Positions 1-45,839 of a DNA stretch of 46,847 nucleotides are shown here, in pieces. Source of the stretch: a virus (lineage: Duplodnaviria; Heunggongvirae; Uroviricota; Caudoviricetes); the IMG/VR virus record IMGVR_UViG_2923318301_000001, positions 1 through 46,847 of that record; one strand, given 5' to 3'. A program made the position numbers and the translations under genes. Under the pieces are notes generated by a model, which was not told where the DNA came from, ran no database searches, and saw nothing but the letters and a program-made list of their open reading frames with translations. Every line of letters starts with the position of its first letter. Position 1 is the first letter of the stretch.

Positions 1-1053
1 CTAGTAGTAATGGTCATAACCTCCGCTTTCTCTTCTGGCTCTGGATGCTCTCACTCGTGCTTTTCTTAACATCCTTAACAGCGGGTGGGTTTGTACTTTG
101 TTCGAGTTTATTGTCTGTGAGGATAGTAACTCCCTGCGCTCTGTCTCTGCCTCTTTGGTGACCGCTATCACTGATAAATCCCAATCGTGTTTGCTAATTA
201 ACGGTGCTTGGAACGGGGTGATTGGTGAGCGATTTATGTCTTGTCGTTTCAATGTACGCTGTATCTGTCGCTTAACTTTGTAGTTGTCTTTCCTTGATGC
301 CTGAATGGCTTTTAGTATGCGTCTTACAGCATGAAAGCCAGTGATAGAAAGTGTTTCTTTTTTTATCTCATGCCGCGCCCAGCCATTCGAATAACCCCAA
401 ACGTTGGCATCTGACCAATCATATAGGCTCTTGCTCGCCTCTCTATTAAAGTCATTTAACTTAGTTTCGGGTTTTGCCATGTAATCAATCTGTTTACCTA
501 TACACCTTGTAGGCTCTGAATATTGCTGACCTTTCAAATCTAGATCCCACTGGGGAGGAACATTTGATGGGATTGCATTGTTTGCCAGTGTTACCCATTT
601 GCTGACAATTTTGCCTGCTTGCCCATTAATGCTTCTTTCGTTCACCATAATTATTGCGTGTACATGCGGCTCTGACTGGTGTTGAGCCCACTCCATGACG
701 TAAACCCACTGATTGCCTTTCGAAGTCAACCATCTGGTAAGTGCCTTTAACGCTTTGTTGAATTTCTCTGGCGTTGTTCCCTTAACGGGTCTGAAGGTAA
801 AGGAGTAGGGGATACCACTAGTTGATTCGACATCCAGAGTAAACAAAGCTCGCCTCATTGTACGCCATTTCTTCTTTGTCCAAGCTGGTGGTATGCAGTG
901 GTTAGCCTTTGATGATTGGCGTTTATTCTCCGCCTTTAATTCATTACGTTTGTGCGTAACTGATCTCACATAAGCTAATGTGCGACCATTGATGTGATTG
1001 ATTACGGCTTGTGATTTTGTGGATAGACTCGCGTCTTTATCGTATAATTCCAT
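1..1053 (-). CDS. Replication initiation protein, probable HUH-type rolling-circle initiator
   Basis: 350-aa ORF with stop at window position 1..3; H-x-H motif (PHVHAIIMV) typical of HUH endonucleases; last gene of the alpA-led operon. Family assigned by motif only. Confidence 0.55.
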   Translation of the reverse strand: MELYDKDASLSTKSQAVINHINGRTLAYVRSVTHKRNELKAENKRQSSKANHCIPPAWTKKKWRTMRRALFTLDVESTSGIPYSFTFRPVKGTTPEKFNKALKALTRWLTSKGNQWVYVMEWAQHQSEPHVHAIIMVNERSINGQAGKIVSKWVTLANNAIPSNVPPQWDLDLKGQQYSEPTRCIGKQIDYMAKPETKLNDFNREASKSLYDWSDANVWGYSNGWARHEIKKETLSITGFHAVRRILKAIQASRKDNYKVKRQIQRTLKRQDINRSPITPFQAPLISKHDWDLSVIAVTKEAETERRELLSSQTINSNKVQTHPLLRMLRKARVRASRARRESGGYDHYY

Positions 1054-1121
1054 GTGTAAAGTTCATATATTTCAATTGCTTCAAAGCCGACTCTCGCAAA
1101 GTCGGCTTTCTGCTTTGTCAA

Positions 1122-1508
1122 TCACAGGTATTTGGTTTCAATACCCTTGTAAACAGTTCTAAGCGTGTCTTCAGGCACTTTACCCACCAGCCCACGCAAC
1201 AACGACAACGTTATGTTTACCTTACGCAATGTCTTTACATATCTGGCGTTCGTCCTCCAGATCTTCAATGTTTCGTCTTTATCGCTGTGGTATGCTTCTA
1301 AATTGCGTTCTGTGACGTGATACGCCTCTGTTTTAAACTGCTCAACAGGAATTCCCCAATCGTTGCGTAACAGCGTTAAAACGCGACTACGTTCGTGATT
1401 TCCGGCTTTCCTTAATATGTCGTCAAACTCTTTTGGGGTAAGCTTCCTGCCACTTAGTAGGATATCGCGTATATTCGCGGCGACCTGAGAGCGTGTAAGA
1501 GTGCTCAT
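1122..1508 (-). CDS. Hypothetical protein (island operon)
   Basis: 128-aa ORF co-oriented with flanking genes; 4-bp overlap with the upstream ORF (1505..1508) suggests translational coupling; no recognisable motif. Confidence 0.55.
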   Translation of the reverse strand: MSTLTRSQVAANIRDILLSGRKLTPKEFDDILRKAGNHERSRVLTLLRNDWGIPVEQFKTEAYHVTERNLEAYHSDKDETLKIWRTNARYVKTLRKVNITLSLLRGLVGKVPEDTLRTVYKGIETKYL

Positions 1509-1699
1509 TTTCGTCCCCCCAGAAATCTGTCGGCAAATTGATCAAGGCTGGAGGCAAGCCACACCCGGCGCTTGCGTCCATTGATGGTCTGATTTATATA
1601 GGGAGGAAAGCTTCGGATATATCGCTTTAACTGATAGAAGCGTGACAGACAGACGCCAAGATATTCTGCTGCGTCTTTAGCGGTCAGGTAATTAATCAT
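1505..1699 (-). CDS. Small helix-turn-helix DNA-binding protein (AlpA/excisionase-like fold likely)
   Basis: 64-aa basic ORF; N-terminal LTAKDAAEYLGV resembles HTH_17-type excisionase/regulator proteins. Confidence 0.5.
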   Translation of the reverse strand: MINYLTAKDAAEYLGVCLSRFYQLKRYIRSFPPYINQTINGRKRRVWLASSLDQFADRFLGGRK

Positions 1700-1780
1700 T
1701 TTATTCCCTTACTGTTGTACCAAAATGTAATATGGAGGAGACTTCCTGTCTCCCCAAATTACTCTACAATTTTTGTGCGA

Positions 1781-1972
1781 TTAAATCAGATCTATTACTA
1801 AGTAATCATCGCCAGAGGCAATGCCGATAGCTTTTCCACCGCTGGTGGATTTCACATCATAAACCCAGGTGCTGGTGCTCACCTTTTGTGGCTCTGATCT
1901 AATCAGTGCCGCGAAGGTTTCAAAATCAACATGGGTTACGTTCAGCTTTTGATTGGTAGGTTTCAACTGCAT
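1781..1972 (-). CDS. Hypothetical small protein
   Basis: 63-aa ORF co-oriented in the island operon; no motif; could be spurious. Confidence 0.35.
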   Translation of the reverse strand: MQLKPTNQKLNVTHVDFETFAALIRSEPQKVSTSTWVYDVKSTSGGKAIGIASGDDYLVIDLI

Positions 1973-2020
1973 TCTTAATACCTAATAACGTATTGTTTGT
2001 ATCCTGTTTGTTTCTGTTCT

Positions 2021-2212
2021 TTAGTTACTACGCGATTCGGCTATACGTTGATCGATCCAGTCATCGATCTCGCTTTCAATAAAAGCTATTGCGCGAGCAC
2101 CAATCTTGACTGATTGGGGGAATTGTCCTCGGCTCATCAGAGCATATACCCACGCCTTGCTATAGCCAGTGCGTTTCAAAACCTCAGATAGCCGAATCAG
2201 CGACTTTTTCAT
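2021..2212 (-). CDS. alpA: AlpA-family transcriptional regulator
   Basis: 63-aa protein MKKSLIRLSEVLKRTGYSKAWVYALMSRGQFPQSVKIGARAIAFIESEIDDWI is a textbook AlpA sequence; ATG at 2212 preceded by GAGGT ribosome-binding site. Confidence 0.85.
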   Translation of the reverse strand: MKKSLIRLSEVLKRTGYSKAWVYALMSRGQFPQSVKIGARAIAFIESEIDDWIDQRIAESRSN

Positions 2213-2368
2213 ATCTACCTCGTAATACGTTGCTTGACTATGTGAGATAGTAAATCATTGTTTTTTTAAGTTTTCTGTGAATTTGGAGAAAAAATTTTTG
2301 GGAATAGAATTACCCCAAATTGGGCGTTATTTTTTAGTTCTAACGCACAATTTGGGAACATCCTTCCT

Positions 2369-3124
2369 TTATTTTGGACGCTTTTTGGTTGCTTTTTTCT
2401 TAAATTTGGGGGCGTACTTATCCAAAGCGTTCGTTAGCAATCTCCGAAATGTATCTGGGTGGGTATCGCTGTCTTCATCGTTCCCGAATATTATGTTGTT
2501 TTCTATTACTTGGGCACTAACCCTATTGATACTAAGGTTTCCTCCACTATGGAAATCTTTGCTTGATTCAAATAAGGCAATCGCCATTCCGGCGATCATC
2601 TTTAAAGCCGTATCTTTTCCTCTCCAGTTTTGTTCTCTTTCTACTTTTTTTGACAGTGCTCCAATTTCTGGTTCGTTATCTGGAACATTCATATCCAGTT
2701 CTGGGAAGAAGTTCACAACCTCGGAGCGCTTGAAATAAAACGAATCGTAAGACCCATACCAATCATCCTCATCATCGTGATATAAAAAGTCTTCCCCTTT
2801 CCTAACGTTGAAAGTCCCTTCTTCCCCCGGTATCGGGCTCTCCCTGTATTCATGCCCCATAGCCAGAAGACCTAAAAACTCCACACACTGCTTTTCAAAG
2901 TCGTCATTAGTTGTAAAACCTGATACCCAATCGAACTGATAAAAGCCCAGCCCCCCTAAAGTATCTGGTTTAGCTTTGCTCAATCTGTAGTTACTTAAGA
3001 TAGCGGCAGCGATCATTCTTTCATTTTCATTGTTTAGTCTTGCCAGTTCGCTGATCAGATTACCAAACCAGATTTTATCTTCTGACTCGTTATAAAACGC
3101 ATCTAGTCCTGTCATCTTAGTCAC
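2369..3124 (-). CDS. Hypothetical acidic protein, island cargo gene between int and alpA
   Basis: 251-aa ORF; start is GTG at 3124 or ATG at 3115, either within 8 bp of the int stop (3117..3119); acidic clusters (DDEDDWYGSYDSFYF, NDEDSDTHPD), lysine-rich C-terminal tail; no domain I can name. Confidence 0.65.
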   Translation of the reverse strand: MTKMTGLDAFYNESEDKIWFGNLISELARLNNENERMIAAAILSNYRLSKAKPDTLGGLGFYQFDWVSGFTTNDDFEKQCVEFLGLLAMGHEYRESPIPGEEGTFNVRKGEDFLYHDDEDDWYGSYDSFYFKRSEVVNFFPELDMNVPDNEPEIGALSKKVEREQNWRGKDTALKMIAGMAIALFESSKDFHSGGNLSINRVSAQVIENNIIFGNDEDSDTHPDTFRRLLTNALDKYAPKFKKKATKKRPK

Positions 3125-4403
3125 GGCGTGTTCTCCTTCCGAACTCGTAAGGGCTTATATGTATTTCTCGATTGGCGTCCAGATAATCTGCCCACCATTG
3201 AAGCATTAGTTTGCGCTCTTCTAAGTAATCAGCCTTGTGCTTGTAGGCTCTTTTAACGTCTTTATATTCTTTGTGGCTCATCTGGCGCTCTACTGCGTCC
3301 TCCTGCCACAAACCGGACTCCATCAGGGAACTACAGGCTGTGGCACGGAATCCATGTCCAGTTACGTCCTCTTGCGTGTTATAGCCCATTAAGCGTAATG
3401 CCTTGTTTACCGTGTTTTCACTCATCACGCCTTTGGTGTTTCTTTCATTCGGAAACACAACATCGTAGCTTCCGCTTAGTTCTCTCAACTGCTTTACAAT
3501 AGAAACAGCCTGACGGCTAAGAAGCACGATATGTTCGTCTTTTCCCGTTTTTGTGCCACGGGTGGAAAACCTCACACCATCGATAGGCTCTCTTTTTTTA
3601 GGGATAATCCACTCAGCCCGATCAAGGTCAAACTCTTTCCAACGGGCAAACCTTAACTCGCTTGAACGAACAAATGTCAACATGGTTAGCTCAATGGCAA
3701 GGCGGGTAAGAGGATTACCTTTAAAGCTGCCCAATCGAGTGAAAAAGTCTGGTAAATCTCTGGGATGTAGTGCGGCATGATGCTTAGTTTCATATTGCAT
3801 TAACCGGACATCGAGATCATTCGTGATGATTTCTGTCTTAATGCCGCTCAGACGGGCGCTATGTATGATGTCCTTAACTCGTTGTTTAAGTCGGTTGGCT
3901 GTATCGTGTTTCCCGGCGTCATCTACCTTCTTAAACAAAGGTAAAATTGTCATCGCCTCCAGTTTGCGAATATCCGAAGTGCCAATGTGAGGGAAAATAT
4001 ACATTTCAAGGCTTCTAAGTACGCGTTTTCGTTGGTCTTCGTTCCACATCTGGTGGCTTTCAACCCATTGACGTCCTATTGTCTCAAAAGTGAATGCGCC
4101 TTTTTCTTCTGCTTTTGCTGCTCTTTGCTCTGCTTTGGGATCTATCCCCTTGACTAACAACTTTTTGGCGTTGTCTCGTTTTTCTCTGGCGTCTTGTAAG
4201 CTAATGGTTGGATATACACCAAAAGCAAGTCTGTCTTCTTTCTTATCTGATGGGCGGCGATACTTCATTCGCCAATACTTCGACCCGGTCTGGGATACTT
4301 CAAGATAAAGACCACCACCATCAGACAATTTATAAGTTTTGTCTCGTGGCTTAGCTGCTTTGCACTGACGGTCTGTTAATTTGTTGAGGGTATTTCTGGA
4401 CAT
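3117..4403 (-). CDS. int: Tyrosine site-specific integrase (P4-type)
   Basis: 428 aa; N-terminal arm-binding-like region, C-terminal catalytic region with HGFRAT motif and downstream Tyr; start 164 bp from the att repeat. Confidence 0.9.
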   Translation of the reverse strand: MSRNTLNKLTDRQCKAAKPRDKTYKLSDGGGLYLEVSQTGSKYWRMKYRRPSDKKEDRLAFGVYPTISLQDAREKRDNAKKLLVKGIDPKAEQRAAKAEEKGAFTFETIGRQWVESHQMWNEDQRKRVLRSLEMYIFPHIGTSDIRKLEAMTILPLFKKVDDAGKHDTANRLKQRVKDIIHSARLSGIKTEIITNDLDVRLMQYETKHHAALHPRDLPDFFTRLGSFKGNPLTRLAIELTMLTFVRSSELRFARWKEFDLDRAEWIIPKKREPIDGVRFSTRGTKTGKDEHIVLLSRQAVSIVKQLRELSGSYDVVFPNERNTKGVMSENTVNKALRLMGYNTQEDVTGHGFRATACSSLMESGLWQEDAVERQMSHKEYKDVKRAYKHKADYLEERKLMLQWWADYLDANREIHISPYEFGRRTRRD

Positions 4404-4566
4404 GTTGGGGGCACATATACAATCGAACCAGCAATGCCCCTAATTATGCCCCATAGATTTACTTGATTTCAATAGACGGAAATGGACGTCATGAGAATAA
4501 AATCTCTTTATTTTTATATGTTTACATGGGATTTATAGACAATGGTAGACGTTGGTGTACAGCGGG

Positions 4567-4582
4567 ATGGTGTCCCCTGCAG
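4567..4582. repeat. att core repeat (attR of prophage, shared with island to the left)
   Basis: atggtgtcccctgcag is identical to the 3' end of tRNA-Arg at 45764..45779. Confidence 0.75.
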
Positions 4583-4655
4583 ACATCTACTTGAAGCGGC
4601 AGGGGATTGATTGGAATGGTGTTTTTTAGATGTGAGAAATATTTTACCCGCTATT

Positions 4656-4856
4656 TTACCCATTGGCGCGGCTTAAGAGCTTATTTTTGAATTCACAATG
4701 GTCACGATATAACCATCTTGCTCGACCGTGGATAACTTTGGCTTTTGGCAGGTCGCCGGACTTAATCCGGTCGTAGATGAAGGTTTTACCGAAGCCAGTA
4801 TCGGCCATGATGAATTTCAAATCAACCAGTGAATCAGGCTGTAGTTCGTGTTGCAT
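4656..4856 (-). CDS. torI: Recombination directionality factor / excisionase TorI
   Basis: 66-aa protein MQHELQPDSLVDLKFIMADTGFGKTFIYDRIKSGDLPKAKVIHGRARWLYRDHCEFKNKLLSRANG matches my recollection of E. coli TorI; GGAG ribosome-binding site upstream. Confidence 0.85.
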   Translation of the reverse strand: MQHELQPDSLVDLKFIMADTGFGKTFIYDRIKSGDLPKAKVIHGRARWLYRDHCEFKNKLLSRANG

Positions 4857-4875
4857 GAGTGCTATCTCCGAATAG

Positions 4876-4891
4876 GGAATCGAACCTGCAA
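4876..4891. repeat. Second tRNA-Arg-derived fragment (T-arm segment)
   Basis: ggaatcgaacctgcaa is identical to tRNA positions 45779..45794, i.e. the segment immediately adjoining the att core in the intact tRNA. Confidence 0.55.
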
Positions 4892-4900
4892 ATCAGGCAA

Positions 4901-4921
4901 TAAAAAACCGCATTGATGCGG
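4901..4921 (-). terminator. Putative intrinsic terminator of the early-left operon (read on minus strand)
   Basis: On the minus strand: stem ccgca / tgcgg with 4-nt loop followed by TTTTTT; lies just downstream of the yfdT-like gene. Confidence 0.45.
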
Positions 4922-4987
4922 CGATGGTAGGTCTGGATATCTTGATAAATGAAAATGCCTCATCGAGTGTGAGGCTGTATGGCTCCA

Positions 4988-5293
4988 TTATTTCACCTCT
5001 TGCTGTGACATTGTTGAAAAATGGATACCAGCTCGTTGCTGCCAGACGATCCAACCGAGAGTCATATCCCATGCCATGTATTCGTTATTGCCGTTTTTTG
5101 CTCTCCGACGATCTACTAAGTCACCGAAACGCTTTTCCATGAATAATTCATAAGCTTCGCGTTCATCTGGTTCTACTTCCAGAGATAGGAGTGCGATTTC
5201 ATAAGCACGGCGCTCAATATCGTCTCGCACGTCAAGGCTGCTGATACGCTCTTTAATTTCTTTAATCAGTTCTTTGTCGGTAAAAGTGGTCAT
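4988..5293 (-). CDS. yfdT: Phage early protein, YfdT-like
   Basis: 101-aa ORF; length and position (next to torI) match my recollection of CPS-53 YfdT; 1-nt overlap with upstream gene. Confidence 0.6.
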   Translation of the reverse strand: MTTFTDKELIKEIKERISSLDVRDDIERRAYEIALLSLEVEPDEREAYELFMEKRFGDLVDRRRAKNGNNEYMAWDMTLGWIVWQQRAGIHFSTMSQQEVK

Positions 5294-7199: not shown

Positions 7200-7562
7200 T
7201 TAACGACCTGCTGCGCGGAGTTTTCCGTCAGGTTCACCGGCAAGAGTCAGTAACTGTCCCTGGTCTTCCTGCAGAATAGTCAGGCGACCACCGCGATTGA
7301 CATACATCGGCGTTTCGGTGGTGTCTTCTTCGGAAATTTTCCCGCGGTTAGTCGGGCGAACATATGAGAGTTTGTGTTTGATTTTCACTCGGTTCTCATC
7401 AAACGGTTCGATTTCCAGGTTGAGCGAGACCTTACCTTTGGTTTTCGTGTTCATCACACCGGAAGCGACTTCACTGAGAACTGCGCCGATTTTGGTTTCA
7501 AATACGCCGCCGTCCAGCTCCCCGATAAATGCCTGCACATCAGTACTGCGTTCGCTAGCCAT
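7200..7562 (-). CDS. yfdP: Phage early protein, YfdP-like
   Basis: 120 aa from ATG at 7562 (MASERSTDVQ...), GAGGAG ribosome-binding site upstream; the track's 226-aa extension runs into a GC-rich structured region and reads Arg/Pro-rich, so rejected. Confidence 0.7.
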   Translation of the reverse strand: MASERSTDVQAFIGELDGGVFETKIGAVLSEVASGVMNTKTKGKVSLNLEIEPFDENRVKIKHKLSYVRPTNRGKISEEDTTETPMYVNRGGRLTILQEDQGQLLTLAGEPDGKLRAAGR

Positions 7563-7599
7563 TTTGCTGCTCCTCATCATATCGACCCTGCAAGGTCGG

Positions 7600-7860
7600 T
7601 TAGTTTCTCCACAAAACAGAGAAGAACACCTGCGGTGACTGCCGCCCGGATGGATTGGGTTATGAGCCCGTCGTCCGGTGATGCTCTTCTCTGTTTTGTA
7701 AAAAGGACGGTACCAGCCGGAAGCAAGGGTACAAGCTGGTACCGCCAAGACTACACACAGCATAAAGTTGTGGTGCCGGGTGCCTCCCGGTGCCTGGCGA
7801 AGGTTGCACACCAGGCGGGTGGGTATCCACAGAAGGTCGACTGTCAGCCTCAACCTTAAC
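7600..7860. other. GC-rich, highly structured non-coding block (candidate structured RNA or regulatory element)
   Basis: Perfect 15-bp inverted repeat 7611..7625 / 7685..7699 enclosing 59 nt; 10-bp inverted repeat 7708..7717 / 7735..7744; further stems at 7776..7790 and 7792..7816; visibly GC-rich against AT-rich neighbours; every overlapping ORF reads as low-complexity. Confidence 0.35.
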
Positions 7861-8030
7861 CCGCGTGCGCTGAGCCGCATTCACCACAACGCTAAGGATT
7901 CTCTCTGGTTGAAAATACTTAGCTGTTATGTGCCTGCTTTTAGCCACATCAGGCGAGGTGGACCTAGTTATTCCCCAACAACAAGGATTCGGTTAATCTG
8001 GTTATCCCCAACAATGCAAAAGGAAAAGAA

Positions 8031-44442: not shown

Positions 44443-45603
44443 TTACACTCCTGCACGACCATCGATGTAATCAGCCCACCACTGCATCATTTCTCTGCGC
44501 TTATCGAGATACTGAGCATGATTGTAAATTCCACGCACAGATCCGCCGTTGGCATGTGCCAGTTGCACTTCAATAGCATCAGCGGGCCATTCGTTCTCGT
44601 TCATAATCGTGCTGAATTCATGCCTGAATCCGTGACCGCTTTCCAGCCCCTCATAGCCGATTTGTTTGATCACAAGCAATACCGCGTTCTCGCAGATTGG
44701 TTTCTTCTTATCGTTGCGCCCGGCAAAAACAAACTCTGAGACTGGTTTGGTGATTGAGCTTAGCGTAGTGAGAAGTTCAACCACCTGGTCTGACATAGGA
44801 ACCACATGAATTTTGCGTCCCTTCATCACACTGGCGTCGATGGTGATAATCCTGTTTTCAAAATCGACGTTCTTCCATAGCATGGAACGAAGCTCTTTCG
44901 TTCTTAGGGCTGTGTAGCGTAAAACTTTGGTCGCAATGAGCGATACGATACTTCCTGAAAATGTTGCCAGTGCTTTATTGAATGCCGGGATCTGGTCTGC
45001 AGGAAGAAACGGGAAGTTCTTCTTGCGGTATCCCTTCATGGCGTCAGCAAGGTCAGGTGCTGGGTTATATTTAGCCCTTCCGGTGACAATAGCGTAACGG
45101 AAAACCTCTCCGCATCTTCTGCGGGCTTTGTTGGCTCGCTCCATTGCACCGCGATCTTCGAATCTTCGGATTACTTCCAGCAGTTGCATCGGCTCAATAT
45201 CCTGAATCTCAAGACCGCCGATGATGGGTAAAATGTCGTCATCAAACATTTTGGCAAGTTCAGTTGCATAGCCTACTGACCAGACTTGCTTCTTGTGCTC
45301 GTACCATTCCTTGTAAATCGCACTAAAGGAATTGTTGTTAGACGAAGCCTTTTTCGCCTTTACCGGATCGATGCCAGCCGAGATGTCTTTCCTCGCAGTC
45401 CATGCCTTATCCCTTGCCTCCTGCAAAGTCATAAGTGGATATTTTCCGACGGTCAGGATTTTCTCCTTACCGTCAATCTTGTAGCGAAGCTGCCATACCT
45501 TTTTCCCGGATACAGGAACATAAAGGTACAGGCCATTACCATCGAGAAGGCGGTATGGTTTTTCTTTCGGCTTTGCTGCTTCAATCTGCTTAACGGTGAG
45601 CAT
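44443..45603 (-). CDS. intS: Prophage integrase IntS (tyrosine recombinase)
   Basis: 386 aa from MLTVKQIEAAKPKEKPYRLLDG (track start at 45639 adds 12 codons); matches my recollection of E. coli IntS; adjacent to argW. Confidence 0.9.
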   Translation of the reverse strand: MLTVKQIEAAKPKEKPYRLLDGNGLYLYVPVSGKKVWQLRYKIDGKEKILTVGKYPLMTLQEARDKAWTARKDISAGIDPVKAKKASSNNNSFSAIYKEWYEHKKQVWSVGYATELAKMFDDDILPIIGGLEIQDIEPMQLLEVIRRFEDRGAMERANKARRRCGEVFRYAIVTGRAKYNPAPDLADAMKGYRKKNFPFLPADQIPAFNKALATFSGSIVSLIATKVLRYTALRTKELRSMLWKNVDFENRIITIDASVMKGRKIHVVPMSDQVVELLTTLSSITKPVSEFVFAGRNDKKKPICENAVLLVIKQIGYEGLESGHGFRHEFSTIMNENEWPADAIEVQLAHANGGSVRGIYNHAQYLDKRREMMQWWADYIDGRAGV

Positions 45604-45763
45604 GGGTAAAAATCCGGTGGGTAAAATTATTTTATCCACTTTTTACCCGTCATGGAGTGCGGCTGTCAACGATCTGACGCGAACCATGACGAACCGTGAA
45701 TATACGGAAGGCTTGATATTCAGGGGATTTTGCGGACTGGTACGGATGGGAGCGAACTGATAA

Positions 45764-45779
45764 ATGGTGTCCCCTGCAG
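45764..45779. repeat. att core at the tRNA (attL)
   Basis: atggtgtcccctgcag, identical to 4567..4582; covers the tRNA 3' acceptor end. Confidence 0.75.
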
Positions 45780-45839
45780 GAATCGAACCTGCAATTAGCC
45801 CTTAGGAGGGGCTCGTTATATCCATTTAACTAAGAGGAC
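45765..45839 (-). tRNA. argW: tRNA-Arg (anticodon CCU)
   Basis: 75-nt reverse-strand sequence with 3' CCA, T-arm GGTTCGATTCC and anticodon loop CTCCTAA; matches my recollection of E. coli argW. Confidence 0.9.

Follow-up and report, generated by a model that had tools for sequence, protein, structure and literature searches.

A second copy of the argW T-arm, probably a control site, upstream of torI in a prophage of the KplE1/HK620/Sf6 family

The prophage module and its two argW-derived 16-mers

The window, which is the whole analysed stretch of 46,847 nucleotides from IMG/VR record IMGVR_UViG_2923318301_000001, carries a full-length member of the KplE1 (CPS-53)/HK620/Sf6 family. The att core CTGCAGGGGACACCAT is present at both prophage ends, where one copy is the argW 3′ end, and it is identical to the published 16-nt KplE1 core (PMC2951348). 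A P4-type integrase lies beside attL and a TorI recombination directionality factor (RDF) beside attR, and the two are co-oriented across attP. Five TorI pentamers and GGGTAAAA-type arm sites overlap PintS in attL. The module is the same as that of KplE1, HK620 and Sf6 with respect to the core, torI beside attR, intS beside attL, the arm-type repeats, and the TorI pentamers of attL. The stretch 4400..5100 is 100% identical to E. coli SCEC020023, and the region is matched in about half of the complete E. coli genomes. The sole tRNA gene that ARAGORN finds in the window is argW. The features of the locus are listed in Table 1.

Table 1. Features of the attachment sites, of torI and of the T-arm-like box in the window
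Feature	Position	Strand	Basis or location
argW, tRNA-Arg(CCT), integration target; its 3′ end forms attL	45765..45839	minus	ARAGORN
attL copy of the 16-nt att core, CTGCAGGGGACACCAT in tRNA sense	45764..45779	minus	sequence match
argW T-arm segment TTGCAGGTTCGATTCC, template of the upstream box	45779..45794	minus	sequence match
attR copy of the 16-nt att core, marking the right end of the ~41-kb prophage	4567..4582	minus	sequence match
P arm of attR	4583..4655	minus	sequence
8-bp inverted repeat, TCCCCTGC in core / GCAGGGGA in P arm	4573..4580 / 4599..4606
Two IntS arm-type repeats (reverse complement GGGTAAAAT)	4641..4649, 4653..4661		P arm side of attR
torI, 66-aa excisionase / recombination directionality factor	4656..4856	minus	ORF; annotated torI in identical records
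torI Shine-Dalgarno GGAG, 6 nt downstream of the box	4866..4869	minus	kept in 14 lineages
T-arm-like box TTGCAGGTTCGATTCC, 16/16 identical to argW	4876..4891	minus	sequence match
Invariant octamer GTTCGATT within the box	4878..4885	minus	14-lineage alignment
TorI-type motif GGTTCG within the box	4881..4886	minus	motif from PMC2951348
Intrinsic terminator ending the upstream gene	4901..4922 (hairpin 4907..4922 + T-run)	minus	near conserved-module boundary
intS, P4-type tyrosine integrase (arm-binding, central and catalytic domains)	44443..45603	minus	domain matches
TorI site I1, GTTCG	45753..45757	minus	P′ arm of attL
TorI site I2, GTCCG	45733..45737	minus	P′ arm of attL
TorI sites I3 and I4, GGTTCG	at 45690 and 45680	minus	P′ arm of attL
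TorI site I5, GATCG, adjoining the -35 element TTGACA	45670..45674	minus	P′ arm of attL

The core in attR corresponds to the last 16 nt of argW, and the box upstream of torI corresponds to the next 16 nt, in the T-arm. Strand and order are the same for both pairs of 16-mers, and the two tRNA segments are adjacent with one base in common (45779). The preliminary description, in which two adjoining argW pieces flank torI, is confirmed to this extent, as both 16-mers match the tRNA base for base. Core and box are 293 bp apart in the prophage (4583..4875), with the order and orientation that they have in the tRNA. These 293 bp were first described as holding torI alone; they also comprise the P arm of attR, the two IntS arm-type repeats and the inverted repeat.

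With two mismatches allowed, ATGGTGTCCCCTGCAG is found only at 4567..4582 and 45764..45779 (expected 0.02 in the window), and GGAATCGAACCTGCAA only at 4876..4891 and 45779..45794 (expected 0.03). When the 418 nt upstream of the core are aligned locally with the tRNA, the best alignment is exactly the box 16-mer, with a score of 32. Shuffled controls have a mean score of 16.2 (sd 2.2), and 32 is reached in 1 of 3000. The expectation of 0.03 and the shuffle control bear out the earlier judgement that a 16/16 match by chance is unlikely.

Several other observations concern the attachment sites. The TCCCCTGC/GCAGGGGA inverted repeat, with GCAGGGGA placed 18 nt into the P arm, is kept in 6/6 aligned phages with a variable spacer. 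It may be a candidate pair of IntS core-type sites, with an unusually wide spacing. A 49-aa ORF (4514..4663, minus strand), homologous to HK620 hkaB and Sf6 gene 17, spans the att core. As its C-terminal part varies with the attR flank, it is probably no genuine gene in the integrated prophage. On the attL side, the argW T-loop GTTCG lies 31 bp from I1, I1 and I2 are 20 bp apart, and I3 to I5 are spaced by 10 bp (45670..45788, minus strand). The distances of 31 bp and 20 bp are close to three and two helical turns. From its sequence, the argW T-loop may be an extra candidate TorI site, exclusive to attL and attB.

A second integrative element occupies positions 1..4566 of the window, in tandem at the same argW, and abuts the attR core. 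Its integrase ORF (3117..4403, minus strand) is P4-type and 31% identical to IntS. The element also contains an AlpA-like 63-aa protein (2021..2212), small HTH proteins, and a 'rolling circle replication-associated protein', and looks like a PICI or a P4-like satellite. In other strains, this island adjoins argW directly, with no prophage in between.

The box in related phages and lineages

The comparison used torI loci from IMG/VR together with those of one genome per species. An identical 16-mer stands upstream of torI in K-12 CPS-53/KplE1 and in free phages: HK620, Sf6, IME10, Kapi1 and others all have it at the same place. In HK620 (AF335538), the box occupies about 1677..1692, within a predicted 'pI promoter / cII site', and the Sf6 box falls in an annotated 'boundary sequence'. 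Similarity of the window to HK620 and Sf6 stops at about 4911-4922, that is, at the terminator hairpin. The mobile torI-attP-int module thus has the box at its edge.

Relatives from Erwinia, Serratia, Pantoea, Citrobacter and Edwardsiella keep the box as (C)AGGTTCGATTCC, in which GTTCGATT is invariant (Table 2). Two box copies are present in the Erwinia-type loci and in locus L092. In the 14-lineage alignment, the invariant elements are GTTCGATT, the Shine-Dalgarno sequence and the start codon only, while the other flanks diverge. The distance from box to GGAG is 5-6 nt in most lineages. Retention of the box while its flanks diverge beyond alignment points to selection. The common core sequence suggests that the T-stems of the hosts are alike.

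Table 2. Versions of the box upstream of torI
Lineage	Box	Remark
E. coli type	TTGCAGGTTCGATTCC	16/16 to argW
Erwinia type	CACAGGTTCGATTCCC	single or tandem pair
Serratia	TTCCAGGTTCGATTCCTG	17/18; 2 nt longer, 3-nt core overlap
Pantoea L137	CCGGTTCGATTCCTG	likewise extends into the core
Citrobacter type	CCAGGTTCGATTTCC	1-nt insertion
Edwardsiella / P. stewartii	GACAGGTTCGATTCCCTGTC

Among the torI loci compared, no box was found in the Klebsiella type, Tatumella, Rouxiella, Arsenophonus, some Pantoea, and Dryocola L136. In the Klebsiella type, torI follows directly after the upstream ORF, with neither terminator nor box. Dryocola sp. L136 has a TorI nearly identical to that of the box-bearing Citrobacter type, and its box is cleanly gone (TTTTTTATTGCCTG joined to GAGGAAAGCatg). 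The gap suggests that about 24 nt were deleted recently. Several lineages and this recent derivative do without the box, which indicates that it is dispensable. Two further torI loci, L133 from an 'Actinomycetes' MAG and L150 from a 'Parachlamydiaceae' MAG, carry enterobacterial-type torI modules and are probably cases of MAG contamination or mis-binning.

A candidate operator of torI and the alternative explanations

The experimentally defined TorI sites are GTTCG, GATCG and GTCCG (PMC2951348), and they are published on attL only (PMC2951348, PMC3509656). According to the authors of PMC2951348, excision control must act on the RDF gene. Int and the RDF repress int in KplE1 and in P4 (for P4, a passage of PMC7286903), and the same source, where it cites Piazzolla 2006, gives Int and Vis as repressors of P4 Pint.

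The GGTTCG within the box is a candidate TorI site, which fits G(T/A)(T/C)CG, typically (R)GTTCG. Sites I1-I5 (45670..45757) and the box have one orientation, and the box shares the GTTCG/GGTTCG motif of the published I1-I5 sites (PMC2951348). In contrast to I1-I5, it lies about 300 bp away across the core, is outside the minimal attR, is usually single, and has ATT(C)CC. Across lineages, the P′ arm contains about five co-oriented RGTTCG sites. TorI binding sites form cooperative arrays at spacings of 10-20 bp. The E. coli-type leader has one good TorI-type motif and a weak ATTCG 12 nt downstream. Two TorI-type motifs are present in the Erwinia, L092, P. stewartii and Edwardsiella types, and in the last two the second motif (GTTCG/GTCCG) comes 12 nt further downstream, overlapping the Shine-Dalgarno sequence.

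The window contains 87 GTTCG pentamers against 94 expected, so a lone GTTCG carries no statistical weight. ATT(C)CC is conserved in the box and not in the P′-arm sites (GTTCGC), so TorI recognition alone is insufficient to account for the whole box. No repeated operator was found elsewhere in the prophage: the box 12-mer is confined to torI and argW. A sigma-70 promoter scan detected none near the box. With no promoter visible there, an operator would need to act as a roadblock or through the leader RNA.

The upstream piece is a conserved extra T-arm copy and probably a control site of torI. The favoured interpretation is held with about even confidence: this copy of the argW T-arm, maintained as a separate element, would act as an operator-type site restraining torI. 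From the sequence comparison, we infer that proteins bind the box and that it has a regulatory function. The box is placed between the intrinsic terminator and the torI ribosome-binding site and is part of the conserved IntS/TorI module. In the proposed mechanism, TorI would bind it through GGTTCG, on DNA or possibly on the leader RNA, and IntS might perhaps also bind, via its core-binding domain. TorI or IntS at the box would then hold torI expression in check.

An unlikely alternative is that the box acts in the torI leader RNA, either as an anti-Shine-Dalgarno element (UUCC/GGAG) or by folding into a T-arm-like hairpin, which would limit TorI translation or serve as a protein-binding site. 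AUUCC or UUUCC pairs with GGAG in the minimum-free-energy folds of several lineages, and T-arm-like hairpins occur in the Edwardsiella and Serratia versions. The P4 protein Vis, a TorI relative, was reportedly found by Piazzolla et al. in 2006 to bind RNA and to regulate int post-transcriptionally, which counts for this explanation. However, RNAalifold gives neither a consensus structure nor covariation over the 14 lineages, the z-scores of the individual folds are insignificant (-1.7 to +0.7), and an Rfam search returns no match. A T-arm RNA element would have a conserved T-loop-closing stem with covariation, and this combination is not found. The whole torI transcript and the individual leaders fold no better than shuffles. 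As judged from the fold models, the box may have a weak anti-Shine-Dalgarno role.

The preliminary description saw in the two pieces a 31-bp tRNA copy split by torI. On this account, an ancestral attP held a contiguous tRNA copy of at least 31 bp, into which a torI cassette was inserted, and the 16-mers are its halves. The pieces abut to the base in E. coli-type phages, and the torI-attP-int unit travels whole as one mosaic module, which counts for such an origin; it is nevertheless quite unlikely. In most lineages, the core is already flanked by an in-register T-loop remnant, and attP has no gap. Most non-E. coli lineages have TTCGAT-GTA-TGCAGGGGAC beside the core where the tRNA has TTCGAT-TCC-TGCAGGGGAC; the remnant is a degenerate GTAGAT in the present prophage and TTCGAT in most relatives. 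Since the T-loop remnant in attP is in register, the upstream box is a second copy and not the other half. The box also overlaps the core by 3 nt (CCTG) in Serratia and Pantoea lineages, is duplicated in tandem in Erwinia phages, and is absent from others. Because its ends vary across lineages, the exact abutment marks where the E. coli-type similarity stops and is not a property of the element.

Contiguous T-arm-plus-core 25-mers lie in whole tRNA genes in 120/120 of the viral-contig matches listed, and no attP with an unsplit T-arm and core is present among these matches (at least 120, all whole tRNA genes). Excision in vitro works with a 135-bp attR, whose inner end is set by primer attR-IHF2 within the torI 3′ end (PMC3509656). 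This attR recombines without the box, which is therefore outside the minimal recombination site. The box is neither required for in vitro recombination nor in register with the crossover, as an att identity block would be. A decayed full duplicate of T-arm and core upstream of torI was also considered and rejected: when compared with 31 other leaders in the window, the one following the box shows no greater likeness to the core.

The attP of L003 and of L086-L141 (equivalent to window 4583..4592) has TTCGAT in register, with the T-stem TCC changed to GTA/GTC. This conserved 3-nt mismatch sets the edge of the identity block in these loci.

In phages that integrate into tRNA genes, such as P22 at thrW, attP has a long identity block that copies the 3′ part of the tRNA. 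The attachment sites of tRNA-integrating elements are said to have been classified by Williams in 2002. P22-type identity blocks are contiguous and include the crossover, whereas the box is detached by 293 bp and is unneeded for in vitro recombination.

It is likewise rather improbable that the box resembles a generic T-loop by chance or is left over from a tRNA fragment without any function. GGTTCGAnnCC is indeed a generic T-arm consensus, but the E. coli-type match extends through the argW-specific TTGCAGG. Several lineages have no box and in vitro excision is independent of it, yet the octamer is invariant across lineages whose flanks cannot be aligned. Moreover, 4 exact copies of the T-loop 9-mer GGTTCGATT occur in the window where 0.34 are expected; of the three outside the tRNA, two are just upstream of recombination genes.

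A cII-activated integration promoter pI at this position, with an incidental tRNA likeness, is very unlikely. It has been predicted in the HK620 and Sf6 annotations, which place a pI promoter over the box; in the HK620 record, the promoter is at 1664..1702 (window 4863..4901) and the cII site at 1689..1701. The coordinates coincide with the box, but the comparative data support neither the half-sites nor the promoter. The half-sites are spaced as TTGC-N5-TTGC and not N6, and such patterns occur at chance frequency. Among E. coli-type loci for which a start was recognised, about one in three has TTAC in place of the first TTGC, and the cII site is not kept in the other box-bearing lineages. Neither a sigma-70-like promoter nor the arrangement of a cII-activated one (TTGC-N6-TTGC with -35/-10 elements) is found at the box.

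Lastly, a scar of successive argW integrations in this chromosome with different crossover points, as the tandem island and its integrase might suggest, has a close to negligible probability and is refuted by the same 16-mer in the same place in the virion-derived genomes of HK620 and Sf6 and in K-12 CPS-53, which has no tandem island. Of the earlier account, the second 16-mer thus stands as a real, non-chance copy of the argW T-arm, while the split-site and scar readings lack support.

T-arm-like boxes in integrase leaders and significance for the family

The operator interpretation of the torI box has a parallel in P4-type integrase genes. Besides the copies in argW and at torI, one GGTTCGATT lies at 4421..4429 (minus strand). 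It precedes the start codon ATG of the island integrase by 17 nt and is flanked by GGGGCAT repeats on one side and by an inverted copy of them on the other. The fourth is at 7405..7413 (plus strand), in the opposite orientation, among overlapping ORFs of both strands (about 7200..7880). The E. coli relatives of the island are at least 94% identical and hence uninformative on the 9-mer, so more distant integrases (L277-L355) were used. Integrases that are 45-59% identical and target leuX or tRNA-Asn have (G/C)TTCGAT(T) at the same leader position, between arm-type repeats. Their leader box retains GAT even with GAG in the target T-loop. At argW, leuX and a tRNA-Asn gene alike, the leaders of P4-type integrases contain (G)GTTCGAT(T), and the L355 leader box GGTTCGATTTCC is 12/12 identical to the Citrobacter-type torI box.

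As at torI, the (G)GTTCGAT(T) box of the P4-type int genes is in the leader of a recombination gene, near arm-type repeats, and these genes too belong to tRNA-targeting elements. They differ in that the box precedes int and not the RDF gene. A doubtful but broader proposal is that the T-arm-like box is a family-wide cis element of P4-type tRNA-targeting modules, which would be read by AlpA/Vis/TorI-type factors that recognise T-loop sequence on DNA or leader RNA. If this were true, one code would mark the chromosomal target, where the T-loop is 31 bp, or three helical turns, from I1. The same code would feed back on the recombination genes, namely torI here and int in P4-like islands.

The module, the core and the protein sites are already known; what is new, if modest, is a conserved T-arm-like box that stands detached at the torI ribosome-binding site. 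In the KplE1 publications consulted, the tRNA-derived part is described as the 16/17-nt core alone, whereas an extra T-arm copy is present here. A second T-arm copy ahead of torI was not found described in any of the KplE1/TorI publications consulted, including PMC2951348 and PMC3509656. The finding corrects the tempting reading of a split att site and casts doubt on the predicted promoter and cII-site annotation in the HK620 and Sf6 records. Excision in this family is thought to be set mainly by the amount of TorI, and the regulation of torI is poorly defined. The box, which abuts the torI ribosome-binding site and has a TorI motif, is an easily mutated candidate control point.
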